A DNA stretch of 11,386 nucleotides from a phage. Below, piece by piece: positions 2,870 through 11,386 of the stretch. The DNA lies in the sequence record PZ049719.1. One strand, written 5' to 3'. The notes beneath the pieces were generated by a model. It was not told the DNA's origin. It worked only from the letters and a program-made list of their open reading frames with translations, and searched no databases. Numbering within the stretch: position 1 is the first letter of the stretch; every line of letters begins with the position of its first letter. The position numbers and the translations under genes were made by a program.

Positions 2870-3038
2870 ACAGCCCCGCAGGACTTTTACCGCGTTAAAG
2901 TGCTTCCCGCTTCCCTAGGCTGATCTTTACGGCCAGCCTTCCATGCTGGGCAAGCCGCGTTAGTCTTGGCCTAGTTGCTACATGAATAATTTTTTGGTTC
3001 CGCTTACCGCGCACCTCATTGCTGAGTCATCTGAAAAC

Positions 3039-3713
3039 ATGCGCATTCTGGTTGTAGAAGACGAGATTAAAGCTGCGGAATACCTGCAGCAGGGTCTCAT
3101 CGAGTGTGGTTACACGGTCGATTGCGTAAGTGATGGGCTCGATGGATTCCACCTGGCACTGCAGAACGACTATGACATCGTGCTGCTAGACGTGAATCTG
3201 CCAACCATGGACGGGTGGGAGGTGCTCGAACTCATCAGGCGACGTAAGCAGACACGCGTCATCATGCTGACGGCCAATGGCCGCTTAGAGCAAAAGGTCC
3301 GCGGCCTGGAGTCGGGCGCCGACGACTATATGGTCAAGCCGTTCCAGTTCCCCGAGCTGCTCGCTCGTATCCGAACATTGTTGCGGCGAGGCGAGGCGGT
3401 CGCACTCCCGAGCAACCTGCGTGTAGCCGACCTCGAACTCGACCCGGGCCGGCATCGGGCCTACAGGAGCGGTCAGCGTATTGATCTCACCAGCAAAGAA
3501 TTTGCGTTACTGCATCTGCTCATGCGCCGGACTGGCGAGGTTCTGACGCGCACCGAAATAACCGCCCTGGTGTGGGACATCAACTTCGACTGCGATACCA
3601 ATGTGGTGGATGTTGCAATCCGTCGCCTACGGATGAAGGTGGACGAACCCTTTGGCGATCGCCTGATACACACCATTCGCGGTGTCGGCTACGTGCTGGA
3701 GGCGCGGCCTTGA
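3039..3713 (+). CDS. czcR: OmpR/PhoB-family two-component response regulator, heavy-metal type (CzcR/CopR/CusR-like)
   Basis: Translation MRILVVEDEIKAAEYLQQGLIECGYTVDCVSDGLDGFHLALQNDYDIVLLDVNLPTMDGWEVLELIRRRK... contains the receiver domain with the phospho-acceptor Asp in LLDVNLP, followed by a winged-helix output domain (...IRGVGYVLEARP). The ORF track begins at ATG 2982; I prefer ATG 3039 because this family typically starts MRILVVEDE, though neither start has a strong Shine-Dalgarno. The czcR symbol is by context (czcC-like OMF, porin, overlapping kinase). Confidence 0.8.
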   Translation: MRILVVEDEIKAAEYLQQGLIECGYTVDCVSDGLDGFHLALQNDYDIVLLDVNLPTMDGWEVLELIRRRKQTRVIMLTANGRLEQKVRGLESGADDYMVKPFQFPELLARIRTLLRRGEAVALPSNLRVADLELDPGRHRAYRSGQRIDLTSKEFALLHLLMRRTGEVLTRTEITALVWDINFDCDTNVVDVAIRRLRMKVDEPFGDRLIHTIRGVGYVLEARP

Positions 3714-5083
3714 AGCCACTCAGCCTCGCATCGCGTCTCGCGCTTCAAATCACATTGACCGGCGCCGTCTTGGTCGCGCTGTTGATTGCACTGAGCTACT
3801 GGGTACTTGTGCGCCAACTGGAACTGCGCGCCCAGGAGGAAGTGACGGCCAAGCTCTCGCAGATCGATCATGGACTCCTAGAAGACACCAAAGCCCGTAT
3901 GGGCCGCTCCTGGCAACACGCACTGAGCGATACGGTACTCGGCCATGACAACCTTTCGATTACCGTCATCGGCGATAGAGCCAAATCCCCCATTTTTAGT
4001 ATCGGCCGGTTCGCCCATGCGCCGCAGCAGATGGATCTTGTGAACAGAGACGGTGAATACCTAGGCTGGACCACGGAAGACGGCGTGCAGATGCTAACCG
4101 GGCGCAAGCAAATACAGGTCCCGGGACTGGCTCCAATGACGCTTTTACTTACGCAAGATCGCAGTGCCGATCAACTGCTAGTGGCTGCATTCCTGCGCTC
4201 GGCCTTAGTGACTGTGCCGATGCTGCTGATGTTGATCGGGTTGGCTGGATGGCTAGTTGCTAACAACGGTTTGCGACCGCTTCGCAAGTTTCGGGCCTTG
4301 GCGACAAAGGTATCGACGCAGGATCTGTCACCCCGAATCCGCAGCGATCAGCTTCCACTAGAGCTTCAGGAATTGGCGCACAGCCTCAACGTAATGCTTC
4401 ATCGACTCGATGACGGAGTTCAGCAACTGTCACAATTCTCGGACGATGTGGCCCATGAGTTGAAGACTCCCCTAAATAACCTGATAGGCAAGGCGCAGGT
4501 GACATTGGTGCGTGAGCGAAGCAAGGAGCAATATAGGGAAGTGCTCGAATCGTCGGTCGAAGAGCTCGAACGCATGGATCGAATCGTGTCAGACATGCTG
4601 TTTCTCGCCCAGGCCAGCCACGCCAGCCCAGCACTGAAACTCGAACAACTATCCCTGGGAAGTGAGGCGAATCGCGTCTGTGAATACCTCGAAGTCCTCG
4701 CCGAAGAAGCCGGAGTCGCAACGACGGTAACGGGCGATGCCATAGTTCTAGGAAATCGGCTTATGGTCCAACGGGCCATTTCCAACCTGCTATCCAACGC
4801 GTTGCGGCATTCGAATACTGGCAGCACGGTCGAAATTAAGATACTTGAGAAGGACATAGACATCGTCTCGCTGGCTGTCACCAATCATGGCGCGACTATC
4901 GAATCGGATCATCTCCCGCACCTGTTCGACCGCTTTTACCGCGTTAACGGCATACAACCTCGTGGGGCAGGATTGGGGCTAGCTATTGTCCGTTCAGTGA
5001 TGAACCTCCACAAAGGCCACGTGGCCGTCGCCAGCAAAGACGGTCGGACCACATTCGAACTCACCTTTCCTCGGCACGCCTGA
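3710..5083 (+). CDS. czcS: Heavy-metal sensor histidine kinase (CzcS/CusS/CopS-like)
   Basis: Two predicted transmembrane segments flank a periplasmic region. H-box FSDDVAHELKTPLNNL with the His codon at 4454..4456; N-box LLSNALRHS; DRFYRV; G-box GAGLGLAIVRSVMNLHKGHV. The only plausible start is TTG 3710..3712, overlapping the regulator stop (TGA 3711..3713) and preceded by GGAGG at 3698..3702; the first in-frame ATG lies far downstream and would delete the first transmembrane segment. Confidence 0.8.
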   Translation: MKPLSLASRLALQITLTGAVLVALLIALSYWVLVRQLELRAQEEVTAKLSQIDHGLLEDTKARMGRSWQHALSDTVLGHDNLSITVIGDRAKSPIFSIGRFAHAPQQMDLVNRDGEYLGWTTEDGVQMLTGRKQIQVPGLAPMTLLLTQDRSADQLLVAAFLRSALVTVPMLLMLIGLAGWLVANNGLRPLRKFRALATKVSTQDLSPRIRSDQLPLELQELAHSLNVMLHRLDDGVQQLSQFSDDVAHELKTPLNNLIGKAQVTLVRERSKEQYREVLESSVEELERMDRIVSDMLFLAQASHASPALKLEQLSLGSEANRVCEYLEVLAEEAGVATTVTGDAIVLGNRLMVQRAISNLLSNALRHSNTGSTVEIKILEKDIDIVSLAVTNHGATIESDHLPHLFDRFYRVNGIQPRGAGLGLAIVRSVMNLHKGHVAVASKDGRTTFELTFPRHA

Positions 5084-5317: not shown

Positions 5318-5635
5318 ATGAACCGCCCTGCTAAAGTAATCCTGCCGTTCTTTCTGGCCGCTGCTTCTTCGCTCGCTATGGCTGAAGACGGAGGGGAACT
5401 AACAATGCAGCGCCTTGAGAGTGCGTCAGTAACAAATCCCACCCTTAAAATACTTGTTAAAGAAGGTAAAGTGCTGAGCATAGCACCTGCAGGGACGACC
5501 GGTACGACCGGAATGATTCAGAGTTATAGAACTAACGGCAAAGTTCAAACGTACGAGATGAAGGTTAAGACCCCTGATGGGAAGATCCATACGGTTGAGT
5601 TTTTGAGCGCCCCGGTTGGTATAAACAACGGCTAA
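5318..5635 (+). CDS. Small secreted/periplasmic protein of unknown function (105 aa, signal peptide plus beta-rich mature domain)
   Basis: ATG 5318 preceded by AGAGGG. N-terminus MNRPAKVILPFFLAAASSLAMA is a typical Sec signal peptide with an A-x-A cleavage site. The mature part (...GKVQTYEMKVKTPDGKIHTVEFLSAPVG) is Thr/Gly/Lys-rich, looks beta-stranded and has no Cys/His metal motif. It sits in a visibly A+T-rich segment between the kinase and the MerR gene. Family not recognised; PepSY-like or DUF2790-like are only guesses. Confidence 0.6.
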   Translation: MNRPAKVILPFFLAAASSLAMAEDGGELTMQRLESASVTNPTLKILVKEGKVLSIAPAGTTGTTGMIQSYRTNGKVQTYEMKVKTPDGKIHTVEFLSAPVGINNG

Positions 5636-6064
5636 CAGGCCAGTAAGCCCCAACGCCATTAATTTAATGCACGCGTCCTCGCTAATGCCAGCGAGAATTC
5701 CACAAGCCTCAACTTCCCGCCCATCACTGCAATTAGCCCGCAGTGATACGAGTTGTCGTTCGAGTGACTGCAGAGCGGTTATCTGCGACTTGACTTGAGA
5801 AATGTGTTCATCGAGCAAGGCATTAACGGCCGTACAAGGCTGGCGAGGGTCATCCTGGTAGCGTTGGAGTGCGTGAATCTCTGGAAGTGACAGATTCAGG
5901 ATTCGGCAGCTCCGGATGAAGGCTAGCCGCTCGCCATGCTTCTCGGTGTAGACACGATAGCCGTTCGCCTGGCGATCAGGCGGTGGCAGCAAGCCCTGCT
6001 GCTCATAGAAGCGGATCGTCTGTGTATCAATCCCTATTAGCCTTGCTAATTGACCAATGCGCAT
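5426..6064 (-). CDS. MerR-family metal-responsive transcriptional regulator (CadR/ZntR/PbrR-like) with an aberrant 3' extension
   Basis: N-terminus MRIGQLARLIGIDTQTIRFYEQQGLLPPPDRQANGYRVYT is the MerR helix-turn-helix; a dimerisation helix follows, with Cys at residues 77, 112 and 121 in the pattern of the CadR/PbrR/ZntR metal site. The ORF has no stop until 5426, giving 212 aa against roughly 135-150 aa typical of this group. The last 65-80 codons lie antisense to the small-protein gene and look non-native (...FTFFNKYFKGGICY). The coordinates are those of the open frame; the true functional 3' end is uncertain. Confidence 0.7.
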   Translation of the reverse strand: MRIGQLARLIGIDTQTIRFYEQQGLLPPPDRQANGYRVYTEKHGERLAFIRSCRILNLSLPEIHALQRYQDDPRQPCTAVNALLDEHISQVKSQITALQSLERQLVSLRANCSDGREVEACGILAGISEDACIKLMALGLTGLLAVVYTNRGAQKLNRMDLPIRGLNLHLVRLNFAVSSITLNHSGRTGRPCRCYAQHFTFFNKYFKGGICY

Positions 6065-6156: not shown

Positions 6157-7047
6157 ATGAGCAAGTCCGATGGTCCCTGCGGCTGCGATGCGACACCAGC
6201 CGCCGATGCCGGTGTGCAAAATCATTCCGATACGACGGGGCAATGGGTCAGTGTTTACGCCGTGCCCAAGATGGATTGTCCATCAGAAGAGCGAATGATC
6301 CGCTTGGCGCTGAATAGTTTGGACGGAATTCGGAAACTGACTTTTGATTTATCGGACCGTCGATTAGACGTCATGCATGACGGGGCCGTTGAGCCCATAA
6401 CTACAAAGCTGGCGGCGTTAGGGCTAGGCGCCACACTTCAGAAAACCGTCACTGCAGACCCGGAGATGATTAAAGCCGTCGAGAATTCGGCGGAATCTAC
6501 ACAGGAGTCCCGTTCCCTACGTTTACTGTTAGGCATCAACGCCTTCATGTTCGTGGTAGAGATGACTGCTGGTCTGGTCGCCAGGTCCGCGGGTCTGATT
6601 GCCGACTCGCTCGACATGTTCGCTGACGCGGCAGTGTACGGCCTAGCCCTTTATGCGGTGGGGCGTAGCGTCAGCCTGCAGGTGCGTGCTGCACACCTTG
6701 CTGGTGTGCTCCAGCTGATTTTGGCTCTCGGCGTGCTCGTAGAGGTATTTAGACGCTTTGTATTCGGCAGCGAGCCCGAGTCGCTGATAATGATGGCCGT
6801 CGCATTCCTGGCATTGCTCGCCAACATGGGTTGTTTGCTGCTGATTTCCAAACACAGGGAAGGCGGGGCCCACATGAAAGCGAGCTGGATATTTTCCGCC
6901 AATGATGTGGTCATCAACGTGGGCGTCATAGTCGCCGGAGCGCTCGTCGCTTGGAGTGGATCCAACTACCCAGACCTGATTATCGGTACTGTTGTGGGAT
7001 TCATCGTTCTCAACGGCGCTCGGCGTATTCTGGCGCTCAAGAGCTGA
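6157..7047 (+). CDS. CDF-like cation efflux membrane protein with N-terminal metal-binding domain; likely target of the adjacent MerR-family regulator
   Basis: ATG 6157 with GGAG 7 nt upstream. The N-terminal ~100 aa are soluble and carry a CGC motif (DGPCGCDATP) and an HMA-like loop VPKMDCPSEERMIRL. Six hydrophobic segments follow, including a CDF-like acidic motif in TM2 (IADSLDMFADAAVYG). The protein ends right after TM6, so it lacks the usual cytoplasmic C-terminal CDF domain. Confidence 0.75.
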   Translation: MSKSDGPCGCDATPAADAGVQNHSDTTGQWVSVYAVPKMDCPSEERMIRLALNSLDGIRKLTFDLSDRRLDVMHDGAVEPITTKLAALGLGATLQKTVTADPEMIKAVENSAESTQESRSLRLLLGINAFMFVVEMTAGLVARSAGLIADSLDMFADAAVYGLALYAVGRSVSLQVRAAHLAGVLQLILALGVLVEVFRRFVFGSEPESLIMMAVAFLALLANMGCLLLISKHREGGAHMKASWIFSANDVVINVGVIVAGALVAWSGSNYPDLIIGTVVGFIVLNGARRILALKS

Positions 7048-7821: not shown

Positions 7822-8478
7822 TCAGTTTTCTGAACTGGATTTCTTCAGAGGTGGCACGAAGAAGATGCGTCTTTGCGGGGGCGCTATCAGGATATCTGTC
7901 GACTTGATGCTTGTGCCTTTTCGACGCCTTGTTTTGCCGTTCTTGTCGACCGCCAGCAGATCACCGGTCGCGACAGCAATGTCGAGTGCCTGCTTTACGC
8001 GAAGCTCGTCAGCCATGGTGTAGTTGGTCAATCCGCTCATCAGACCCAAAAAAGGTTGCCGTTCTACCTCCCATAGGCCCGCTATCCCTAGCAGCCGCCC
8101 ATCGGCACGGGAAATTCGAGTAGGAATAGCCTTGCCTGTTCGCCAGTCGGGCTCATAGATCGCCACCGCAGGGATGATGCAGTGCTGTGCCTTCTTCCAT
8201 GCCTCCCTGAATGACCGCTTGACCGAGGCCGTCTCAGAACGGGCGTTGTAGGTGGACCGTGCCAGCTTTTTGTCGGCCCAGAAGGGCAGGAGCCCAAACA
8301 CTCCCACCTCAGCTTCAAATGGCAACACGGCGTCATCGTACGGGTCGACATTGCGAGGCTTGCGCAGGAACGGCCCGGCATAACCTGGCCACAATTCGAG
8401 CTTCTCCTGAGCGTCGAACTCGACACCAAACTCTTCTTGGAGACGCTCTGGGGTAGGGGCTTCGTAACGACTGCACAT
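7822..8478 (-). CDS. SOS response-associated peptidase (SRAP / YedK / DUF159 family; abasic-site processing protein)
   Basis: Start reassigned to the minus-strand ATG at 8478 (ORF track: 8526) so that the protein begins MCSRYE, placing the family's catalytic Cys at position 2. A GAGAGGTG Shine-Dalgarno lies just upstream. Further family-like motifs are YNARSETA and SFREAWKKAQHCIIPA. Confidence 0.75.
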   Translation of the reverse strand: MCSRYEAPTPERLQEEFGVEFDAQEKLELWPGYAGPFLRKPRNVDPYDDAVLPFEAEVGVFGLLPFWADKKLARSTYNARSETASVKRSFREAWKKAQHCIIPAVAIYEPDWRTGKAIPTRISRADGRLLGIAGLWEVERQPFLGLMSGLTNYTMADELRVKQALDIAVATGDLLAVDKNGKTRRRKGTSIKSTDILIAPPQRRIFFVPPLKKSSSEN

Positions 8479-8628
8479 AACACACCTCTCATTCGTCACT
8501 GTGCTGCTCGGTGTTGCGGCCCGCAACGCCTTGGCGAGTGGGATCTATGATTAGGACAATCTCTCGCGGCACCCCGCTTACTGAGTACATCCTTATACTG
8601 AACGCCTGCCTCCGACGATGGTGAATGC

Positions 8629-9585
8629 ATGTCGATAGATCAGCCCCTCCCTTTCTGGCGCAGAGCAGGAACATTTCTATGGGACTCAGTGCGTGAGGAC
8701 TGTGGGTATCCTGCAACGCTCATGAAGCTGATTAAGAGCCCAGTCAAACTTAATTCGCCCATCCAGGAAACAGCAAAAGGTATTGGCGCAGGAGCGGTTG
8801 TTAGGTGGCACGACTTCGGATCTCTTATTTATGAGCGCGGGATATATCGCGACAAGCTGAATGGATGGACCCACTGCCGCACCTATGGTCGGTATGGCTC
8901 GACTAGCATCGAATGCGCCCCACTATTGCGCGTTGGCAGCGAGATGCAGATCCAACGGTGGCGGTGCGATATCCAACAGGTAGATGGCTTCTCCGCGTCG
9001 AAATCCGAACTCAAGGAGTTCGCCACCATGGATGACATGGTGGTAAGGAACTCACCCGAGATGATCGACGAGATATCTCCGGCGAAGCTGGCGAAGAATC
9101 TGGCCTGGGATGAAATTCGGATCATCAGCCACGTCGATCACGATTATTTCGCCACTTGGGCTTGGGACGGACGCGTCTTTCTGATGAACTCCGGCGGTTC
9201 GCATCACTTCGCAGCTGCCAAGTACATCGCGGCGCGGCTTGAACAGCCGGTTGAGCTGACCGGAACCTATAAGATCTACGGGTTATGTGAGCAGGCTATA
9301 ACAGAACTCAGGCGTGAATACGGCATGTTCGTGTTGTCGCATGAGCCTGATGCTTGGTTGGGGTTCAACGAAGCTATGGCTCGCTTCAAGGCAACGTATT
9401 ATTGGAAGACATTGCCCCGCCCGCACAACCACCAGCGTTGCGCAATTTTTTTACCGCTAAAGGAGAAGCGCTCTGCCATGGTTGCGAGGATTCTCAAGGA
9501 AAACAATTTCCAGGACCTAGGCGCTTACTTGGCTGGCCTAGCTGCCCAGTCACAAGCGGTCATCAACAAAGTCAATCCGCCATAA
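8629..9585 (+). CDS. Hypothetical protein, 318 aa, no family assignable by inspection
   Basis: Long open frame with non-repetitive composition, divergent from the SRAP gene and convergent with the relaxase-like ORF. Contains a His/Asp-rich stretch (IISHVDHDYFATWAWDGRVFLMNSGGSHHF) that could be a metal or catalytic site. The start is uncertain: ATG 8629 has a weak GGTGA upstream, and an alternative ATG lies at 8722. Located in the more A+T-rich islet. Confidence 0.55.
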   Translation: MSIDQPLPFWRRAGTFLWDSVREDCGYPATLMKLIKSPVKLNSPIQETAKGIGAGAVVRWHDFGSLIYERGIYRDKLNGWTHCRTYGRYGSTSIECAPLLRVGSEMQIQRWRCDIQQVDGFSASKSELKEFATMDDMVVRNSPEMIDEISPAKLAKNLAWDEIRIISHVDHDYFATWAWDGRVFLMNSGGSHHFAAAKYIAARLEQPVELTGTYKIYGLCEQAITELRREYGMFVLSHEPDAWLGFNEAMARFKATYYWKTLPRPHNHQRCAIFLPLKEKRSAMVARILKENNFQDLGAYLAGLAAQSQAVINKVNPP

Positions 9586-9625
9586 TTAGGGTAGTCCAGA
9601 CCTCAGCGCAACTATCCAATGATAG

Positions 9626-10870
9626 CTAGTGATCATCCTGACTCTCACAAAGTTTGAGATTGGGATTATCCAGCATCTCAGTTGTGAATACGTCGCCGGG
9701 TTTTTTGAGCATATAACCCTTCAGTGTTTTCGTTTTACGAGGTCCAAAGACTTCGCACGTCCAGATGTTATGTCCGTTGCTCTTCTTAACGTGAAGCTTC
9801 AGCTTTTCGAACGACTTTTGGACCTGCAGCCATGGCTGTCCTTCGCCAGCCCTCGCTGAGAAGAGGGTCGGATGCTCTTGGGCATACCTTCTGAATATTT
9901 CAGGAGTCACCAGAAAAGCCGTGCCGTTGACGGTGTGAACCTTGGCTTTTGCATCATTGATAATGATCTTGTGGGTTCCTACACCCACTTTTAGCCAGTG
10001 CATGAAAAGGTGACCTAGCGTGTCGCCGATCGGGCCAGCGATGGTAGCGGTCGCGGCAGTGTCTGACTGAGCTTCGACCTCGGACGCCGCCGGCATCGCC
10101 GGGGCGGGTACCGAATTGGTCGGCGCGTCACGCATATCCATCAGATCCAGAAGGTAGTCCGTATCATCTACCTCATCGGGTTGCGGTCCATGGTCACTTG
10201 CGGGTTCGTCCCCTTGAGGCTCTGCCGCAACGGCATCGCCGCCCCCGGCAGTAAGGCTGGGCTTTTCCTCCTGCGCTTCGGAAGCTGCGGCAGGGGCTGC
10301 TTCTTCGTTGAGGACTTGCACCGAGCCGCCAAAAGGCTCCGGGCGGTCTTCGCCAGCTGCCCATATGAGTGAAGGTGAAACTCTCAAGAACGTGAATGCG
10401 TTCTTCCATCCCGTAGGGCTCAGGATTTCGGCATCCCAAATAGCTTTGCCAGCAGGATTCGCAACAATCAGGCCGTTATCCTGAAAGACATTGAAGAGAG
10501 TGGAGTTGCGGTCCGGAACACCCTCAATCCCTTGGCTGAGGAGGTGAGCACGCAGCCGATCCGAAACGGTCTTGCTGACCAGCCAGATCGCATCGGCCGT
10601 GATCCAGCCATCGGAAGCGTCTGGCTGATTCAACTTGAGCTCGTTCTTCACCAGGTAGCGCAGCCCATCGAGGAGCTGACGCTGAAGAGTGTTACGCGGT
10701 GCTGCCACAGCTCTGTCTGGATTGCCGCCAAGCTCATGGGCGACCGACGCCTGGTCAGACCTTACAACGATGTCCCCAAGAACCCCAGCGTGCTCAAACT
10801 GGCCAGCCAGTACGTACAGCAAAGCACCCCAGAGCTCTGGATTGGATGAGATCCATCCGATACCATTCAA
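9626..10870 (-). CDS. Hypothetical protein with a long acidic Ala/Pro-rich linker; possibly a 5'-truncated remnant of an ICE-type relaxase (TraI_2_C-like C-terminal region)
   Basis: The frame opens with TTG directly after an in-frame stop at 10871..10873, and the first internal ATG is about 245 codons in, so an intact N-terminus is doubtful. The upstream sequence in the same frame translates to non-protein-like text. A low-complexity segment (about 10000..10300) separates an N-terminal region from a basic C-terminal domain (...WTCEVFGPRKTKTLKGYMLKKPGDVF...). The resemblance to conjugative relaxase C-termini is a recollection, not a search result. Confidence 0.4.
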   Translation of the reverse strand: MNGIGWISSNPELWGALLYVLAGQFEHAGVLGDIVVRSDQASVAHELGGNPDRAVAAPRNTLQRQLLDGLRYLVKNELKLNQPDASDGWITADAIWLVSKTVSDRLRAHLLSQGIEGVPDRNSTLFNVFQDNGLIVANPAGKAIWDAEILSPTGWKNAFTFLRVSPSLIWAAGEDRPEPFGGSVQVLNEEAAPAAASEAQEEKPSLTAGGGDAVAAEPQGDEPASDHGPQPDEVDDTDYLLDLMDMRDAPTNSVPAPAMPAASEVEAQSDTAATATIAGPIGDTLGHLFMHWLKVGVGTHKIIINDAKAKVHTVNGTAFLVTPEIFRRYAQEHPTLFSARAGEGQPWLQVQKSFEKLKLHVKKSNGHNIWTCEVFGPRKTKTLKGYMLKKPGDVFTTEMLDNPNLKLCESQDDH

Positions 10871-11133: not shown

Positions 11134-11386
11134 TCATTGGCGCCTAGCCCACGGGGCAAACAGGGCGCGCAGCAGGCGGGATAAGAACTTGGGTACATCA
11201 ATCTCGGCGATCAGCAGAGCTGAAAAGATGAGAGCTGCACCGGCCAGGGTTCTTCCATCCAAGGTTTCGCCAAGGAGCATCGCTCCCGCGAATGCTGCGA
11301 AGATGGGCTCGAACAGGTAGGTCAGGGCTACTTTTTCTTCTTCGAGATACTTCTGCGCAGCACTCTGAACCGCGTACATGAAGGCT
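11134..11386 (-). CDS. EamA/DMT-family transporter, C-terminal part only; N-terminus beyond the window end
   Basis: The minus-strand frame is open from the window end to the stop at 11134..11136. Translation ...LTYLFEPIFAAFAGAMLLGETLDGRTLAGAALIFSALLIAEI... is the characteristic last transmembrane region of EamA/DMT proteins. The Met at 11379 used by the ORF track is internal. Confidence 0.65.
   Translation of the reverse strand, partial: AFMYAVQSAAQKYLEEEKVALTYLFEPIFAAFAGAMLLGETLDGRTLAGAALIFSALLIAEIDVPKFLSRLLRALFAPWARRQ

Follow-up and report, generated by a model that had tools for sequence, protein, structure and literature searches.

This work concerns one gene in an 11,386-nucleotide stretch of phage DNA (sequence record PZ049719.1; the whole stretch is called the window here), a 318-codon open reading frame (ORF) that a preliminary description, made from the letters alone, could not place in any family. 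The protein can be placed. It is a typical member of the Pfam family DUF6685 (PF20390), a catalogued family without a characterised member or a solved structure. Nearly all of its carriers are conjugative plasmids and integrative conjugative elements (ICEs) of Proteobacteria, where it occurs as a lone gene. We tentatively propose that DUF6685 is a stand-alone cytoplasmic enzyme that aids the establishment or persistence of these elements, a suggestion that could easily be wrong. The preliminary description was right in seeing a conserved coding region of unexplained function here, set in what is left of a mobile element.

The window protein matches the Pfam profile at E=3.6e-92 with 308.3 bits, against a gathering cut-off of 24.6, and its residues 108-313 (the hmmscan envelope) cover profile positions 1-206 of 207. 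Nothing in its length, its architecture or its SKS and NxGGSHH motifs sets it apart from the rest of the family, whose members are single-domain proteins of about 300-330 residues (lengths from 150 representatives). A word-indexed search finds 184 homologues and an exhaustive hidden Markov model (HMM) search finds 686 clusters at 50% identity. The RefSeq product name is already 'DUF6685 family protein', and the translation is 100% identical over 318 residues to GenBank ABP81041.1 (UniProt A4VPZ0), a 'conserved hypothetical protein' of Stutzerimonas stutzeri A1501. GenBank has contained this very sequence from the time of the A1501 genome, and finding it in the window is no discovery. The window protein has no match in NCBIfam or PHROGs, and 0 families of PADLOC-DB 2.0 match it at E<=0.1, the PDC candidate models included. 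Profile and motif-core searches of PDB sequences with DUF6685 returned nothing, and the longer DUF6685 members carry no informative fused domain. The full-text literature gave no relevant paper on DUF6685, PF20390 or the accession numbers; the motif string matched only His-tag linkers.

The window ORF is an intact, genuine gene under purifying selection. Set against the S. nosocomialis copy (locus L010), which is 92% identical, it has a dN/dS of 0.13, and its composition (GC 0.533, GC3 0.624) is close to that of the adjoining genes. The coordinates, the start and stop codons and the composition all agree with the preliminary description, which had called it a full-length frame of ordinary composition. 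That description also named two outcomes that would speak against it; the gene turns out to be neither a member of a housekeeping family nor an ORFan pseudo-ORF. The RefSeq/PGAP model differs from ours in giving the protein 287 residues from Met32 (window 8722) rather than 318 from 8629. The longer start is the correct one: both G26 and P28 precede Met32 and are invariant in 78 homologues, and so the RefSeq models for the lineage of the window protein are N-terminally truncated. The window protein has no hydrophobic stretch (maximum KD19 0.84) and the pI of the family is about 7-8. The predicted product is a soluble, cytoplasmic protein of roughly 36 kDa.

Two alignments were used to look at conservation. 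The close alignment (A1) contains 78 relatives with at least 40% identity, while the broad alignment (A4) adds enterobacterial, Acinetobacter, Pasteurellaceae, Legionella-type and Pseudomonas plasmid branches and reaches down to 22% identity. Many positions are fixed among the 78 close relatives. Those that stay invariant in the broad alignment are S124, W179, N187, G190, S191, H192, H193, A197 and A201, with K125, S126, G189, F194, A195 and A196 nearly so. The first 107 residues are more variable, with only G26, P28, W60 and G79 invariant even among close relatives. The signature of the family is an S-K-S loop together with N-x-G-G-S-H-H-F-A-A-A. S124, N187, G190, S191, H192 and H193 are kept down to 22% identity against a background of general divergence, a pattern of conservation that is most likely that of an enzyme.

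The AlphaFold and Foldseek check recommended in the preliminary description gives a confident model and no significant fold match in the PDB. The AlphaFold2 (AF2) model, built from the 78-sequence alignment, has a mean pLDDT of 94.5 and a pTM of 0.89. The chain opens with helices, forms a three-stranded meander (76-114) and a helical segment (134-167), and from there alternates between strands and helices to the C-terminus; motif 2 lies where strand 184-186 meets helix 191-204. The best Foldseek match of this model to the PDB has E = 0.07. Going by the model, DUF6685 has no detectable relative among solved structures, which falls short of a proven new fold.

A tblastn search of PLSDB places it on 795 plasmids, of which 461 are conjugative and 107 mobilizable; by genus, Escherichia has 216, Acinetobacter 147, Pseudomonas 143, Klebsiella 96 and Salmonella 65. 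The enterobacterial gene is present in 199 of 5,426 complete E. coli genomes (~3.7%) at 259 places, every one of them on a plasmid, and none of those 5,426 genomes has a chromosomal copy. There are 0 confirmed DUF6685 loci among the 2.9 million viral contigs of IMG/VR, and only 2 of 50,697 phage records contain one, both Acinetobacter 'phage' contigs.

The preliminary description also called for a survey of conserved neighbours. We collected 59 family loci from GTDB species genomes, applied BLAST clustering to 715 ORFs from 42 loci, and ran bulk Pfam and PADLOC scans on 285 neighbours within 3.5 kb at 39 diverse loci. A conserved partner gene was sought by the clustering, among the immediate upstream genes and small upstream ORFs, and by the neighbour scans; no family recurs beyond a handful of loci, and the immediate upstream genes are mutually unrelated across loci. 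The 285 neighbours include many mobile-element genes, along with defence and toxin-antitoxin genes. Those of mobile elements are integrases, TraI_2 relaxases, TraG, a type IV secretion system (T4SS) coupling protein, ArdC and insertion-sequence (IS) transposases. PADLOC matches are GajA/GajB, retron reverse transcriptases, AbiEi/AbiEii, MADS mad3/mad8, type IIG restriction-modification, DrmMI, PARIS AriA, type IV Cas7, SoFic, PD-Lambda-5 and PDC candidates, and Pfam adds a Pycsar-type TIR protein, DarT1-NADAR, RES and YhaV/PrlF.

The company the gene keeps differs from one element to the next. A MobH relaxase adjoins it in Stutzerimonas and Pasteurellaceae elements, and ssb or orphan methyltransferases adjoin it on Pseudomonas plasmids. 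Other plasmids place it beside UvrD and strawberry-notch helicases, in a setting with a DEAD-box helicase, RelE/ParE, DUF932 and Abi genes, or next to ParA and H-NS genes. ArdC and DUF932 genes occur beside it as well. A small N6 methyltransferase (253-265-aa N6_Mtase) recurs next to DUF6685 both in ICEs of Pasteurellaceae and in one lineage of Pseudomonas megaplasmids, the latter having a second, upstream methyltransferase of 448 residues (N6_N4_Mtase with an Mrr_N domain). Such orphan-looking methyltransferases (loci L035, L066, L052 and L058) recur though the DUF6685 proteins there are only ~30% identical.

The IncI-gamma/K1 plasmids have a fixed order: repA, a 71-aa ORF, DUF6685, a ProQ/FinO gene and an AAA ATPase gene. 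One of these plasmids has a DUF6685 copy that is 5'-truncated by an insertion. The 71-aa ORF (1775-1990 in locus L061, and present in IncI-gamma/K1 plasmids generally) has no Pfam match and overlaps the DUF6685 start by 4 nt (ATGA), an arrangement that suggests the two may be translationally coupled. No counterpart of this ORF lies upstream of the window gene.

The window gene itself can be followed through eight contexts carrying the identical protein (L074-L081). All eight share a left flank of OprD, a Czc-type two-component system, CadR, CDF, HAD and the truncated SRAP gene, and all eight retain the MobH remnant. The segment beyond that remnant varies. In different genomes it holds EamA alone, a P-type metal ATPase, a UvrD helicase with an OLD-type ATPase (Gabija-like), a patatin with a CD-NTase (CBASS-like), or a second SRAP with UmuD/UmuC-like genes and MvaT. 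This hotspot is bounded by the MobH remnant and an integrase fragment beside pyruvate kinase, and the Gabija-like and CBASS-like pairs lie 1-3 kb from the DUF6685 gene. Because the swapping neighbour leaves the gene and the MobH remnant untouched, we count DUF6685 as part of the surviving backbone of an integrative element in decay; in these genomes the slot beside it exchanges defence cargo. The preliminary description had called this a setting in which cargo genes are common. The setting is indeed a mobile-element remnant that hosts defence and cargo genes, but the DUF6685 gene is more backbone-like than a swappable piece of cargo.

We can now say what our proposal for the function would involve. 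The invariant turn N187-x-G-G-S191-H192-H193 and the S124-K125-S126 loop would together build an active or ligand-binding pocket, one that would suit the binding of an anionic or phosphoryl group, or hydrolysis of a Ser/His type. More speculatively, the substrate might be a nucleotide or related to nucleic acid, in the host or recipient cell. The effect on the element would be anti-defence or support of DNA and plasmid maintenance, and not anti-phage defence. DUF6685 resembles the accessory, establishment and anti-defence genes of these elements (ssb, ArdC, orphan methyltransferases, DUF932 and the leading-region genes) in its genomic company and in its restriction to plasmids and ICEs. It differs from them in having no homology to any and in lying next to the replicon in IncI-gamma/K1 plasmids. 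A bolder form of the proposal, which we regard as doubtful, makes DUF6685 an unrecognised enzyme fold and an establishment or anti-defence factor specific to conjugative elements, whose Ser-His-His/Ser-Lys-Ser pocket would destroy or modify a host immune signal or a nucleic-acid intermediate.

Several things weigh against an establishment enzyme. Our confidence in the proposal as a whole is low: NCBIfam, PADLOC, PHROGs, PDB sequences and fold searches link DUF6685 to no activity. The spatial proximity of the two motifs is assumed. There are no acidic invariants, so a classical Ser-His-Asp triad and a 2-His-1-carboxylate site are both unsupported. The truncated copy in one IncI-gamma/K1 plasmid implies that the gene is dispensable. 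Many chromosomal copies sit amid known defence genes, and this fits a defence role equally well. In the IncI-gamma/K1 plasmids the gene is beside the replicon and outside what we take to be the classical leading region. DUF6685 is also absent by name from the supplementary tables of a survey of leading-region anti-defence genes (Samuel et al. 2024, PMC11541004).

The strongest competing idea is that DUF6685 is a single-gene anti-phage or anti-MGE (mobile genetic element) defence effector of the abortive-infection type, carried as cargo of defence islands. The strong PADLOC matches and the defence and toxin Pfam matches among the 285 neighbours are what one would look for under this idea, and the Gabija-like and CBASS-like pairs of the sister genomes fit it too. 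However, no PADLOC model matches DUF6685 itself, and no sensor or effector domain or informative fusion can be recognised in it. Prophages and satellites commonly carry defence genes, yet DUF6685 is absent from IMG/VR and effectively absent from phage records. It also remains constant while the adjoining defence cargo changes, and in IncI-gamma/K1 plasmids its backbone place close to the replicon is fixed. The carriage by plasmids and ICEs only, the viral absence, this constancy and this position lead us to favour establishment over defence, which we hold to be possible though we would not bet on it. The same position just downstream of repA and near a ProQ/FinO RNA-chaperone gene can be turned to a different use, as can the ParA, H-NS and MobH neighbours. 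They would suit a non-catalytic adaptor or regulator of plasmid or ICE replication, partition or the relaxosome, with the invariant residues serving folding or partner binding. We think this unlikely. The invariants (S, N, G, S, H, H) are small polar residues and glycine that cluster in one turn, as is more usual for a catalytic or ligand site than for a protein interface; there is no conserved neighbour to act as a partner; and no DNA-binding domain was detected in a protein of near-neutral pI.

The remaining ideas start from the motifs themselves. The window protein reads 'SHVDHDYF' at 167-174 and 'GGSHH' at 189-193, and the preliminary description saw in its His/Asp cluster a possible metal-dependent catalytic centre. 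Of that cluster H192 and H193 do stand as invariant, and the alignment of the 78 closer relatives shows no change at D172 or D180 either. But these two are conserved only in the Pseudomonas/Burkholderiales branch: members from enterobacteria, Pasteurellaceae and Acinetobacter have M, E, A or N in place of D172 and E, K, P, S or Q in place of D180. H168, D170 and H171 show free variation across the family. No acidic residue is invariant family-wide in the broad alignment, which argues against a metal-carboxylate site as well as a Ser-His-Asp triad, and no metallo-hydrolase family or fold is matched. A metal-dependent hydrolase of this kind is improbable, more so than an adaptor. The turn also invites comparison with sulfiredoxin and the N-terminal domain of ParB. 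The short motif in common is a beta-hairpin followed by a Gly-Gly-x-His turn that starts an Ala-rich helix, so that the 'GGSHH..AAA' of DUF6685 recalls the 'GGCHR..AA' of sulfiredoxin (Srx). A divergent NTP-binding protein of the ParB/sulfiredoxin fold is effectively refuted, and we find it barely credible: hhalign against human Srx gives a probability of 1%, no ParB-type Pfam family matches any of the 78 members at E<=10, and an hmmsearch of the PDB yields nothing. G-G-S-H-H is present in all sequences, with neither the Arg of GxxR nor Cys-His-Arg in its place, no fold similarity of the motif-bearing core was found, and the window protein is three times larger. Amidase-signature enzymes (GatA, FAAH), whose motif is GGSSGGxAAA, share with DUF6685 a Gly-Gly-Ser turn followed by an Ala-rich helix. 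This resemblance was rejected as well, with Foldseek probabilities for FAAH and GatA of <=0.09 at E >=0.6 and no Amidase Pfam match; the DUF6685 domain is far smaller than the amidase-signature domain.

The features of the window that bear on this gene are collected in the table.

Features of the DUF6685 gene and its flanks in the window
Feature	Coordinates	Strand	Remarks
DUF6685-family coding sequence	8629..9585	+	ATG start, TAA stop, 318 aa; PF20390 308.3 bits
N-terminal region, residues 1-107	8629..8949	+	outside Pfam model, more variable
DUF6685 domain proper, residues 108-313	8950..9567	+	hmmscan envelope
Motif 1, S124-K125-S126	8998..9006	+	S124 invariant, K125/S126 nearly so
Motif 2, N187-S-G-G-S191-H192-H193-F-A-A-A-K-Y-I-A201	9187..9231	+	from translation and conservation; strand-to-helix turn in AF2 model
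SRAP'/DUF6685 divergent intergenic region	8527..8628	.	presumed promoter region
Truncated chimeric SRAP gene	7822..8526	-	divergent from DUF6685 gene; Pfam SRAP positions 1-140 of 214
MobH (TraI_2) relaxase remnant, 5'-truncated	9626..10870	-	convergent with DUF6685 gene
EamA-type transporter fragment	11134-11379	-	beyond MobH remnant

The preliminary description had correctly named the SRAP gene and the relaxase remnant as the flanks of DUF6685. It put them in a lower-GC islet, and GC does fall to 0.48, but the dip is mild and confined to 9251-10000, the 3' ends of the DUF6685 ORF and mobH. The SRAP gene has its canonical MCSRY start at codon 17 (ATG at 8478), and its domain breaks off after about residue 157, whereas the S. 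nosocomialis copy covers Pfam SRAP positions 1-203. DNA similarity breaks at ~8063-8067, and the stretch 7807-8070 matches DNA that in other places is labelled the 3' end of a gene for a 'three-Cys-motif partner protein TcmP'. This chimeric SRAP is probably non-functional. The relaxase remnant matches only TraI_2 positions 184-324, TraI_2_C and MobH 181-340. Full-length mobH is 1830 nt in plasmid NZ_CP091175.1 and similarity ends at window 10842; what is missing is the N-terminal ~190 residues, the catalytic relaxase part. To judge from its sequence, the element in the window should no longer be able to mobilise itself. DNA comparison finds the block of truncated SRAP and DUF6685 (~8063-9599) apart from the mobH block (9621-10842) in other Stutzerimonas plasmids.

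The divergent intergenic region has no sigma-70-like match on the plus strand and no terminator, and no LexA-type CTG-N10-CAG box was found between SRAP and DUF6685. At 8510-8530, where the listed SRAP ORF has its 5' edge, and just inside or beside the intergenic region, there is a nearly perfect 10-nt palindrome, GGTGTTGCGG c CCGCAACGCC, which might serve as an operator or form a hairpin. Further to the left is a CDF-family cation efflux protein (6157-7047, +) with an N-terminal heavy-metal-associated (HMA) domain, and around it a metal-resistance cluster of CadR, a Czc/Cop-type two-component system (2982-5083) and an OprD porin (1253-2722). The CadR-type MerR regulator ORF (5426-6064, -) is 212 aa long and only its residues 1-127 fit the CadR/PbrR model. 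Its C-terminal ~80 residues look like read-through into unrelated sequence, which suggests that the 3' end of this ORF may have been rearranged. The versions at sister loci are 135 aa or 67 aa.

We believe DUF6685 is a reasonable experimental lead, being prevalent on clinically relevant plasmids and without a structural relative. IncI-gamma/K1 resistance plasmids hold it in a fixed backbone place, and its motif is invariant and catalytic-looking. The plasmids of clinical importance that carry it number in the hundreds (IncI-gamma/K, Klebsiella IncF, and large plasmids of Acinetobacter and P. aeruginosa). The activity of DUF6685, once found, could reveal a new way in which plasmids establish themselves, are maintained or counter defences, and perhaps an enzyme fold not seen before.
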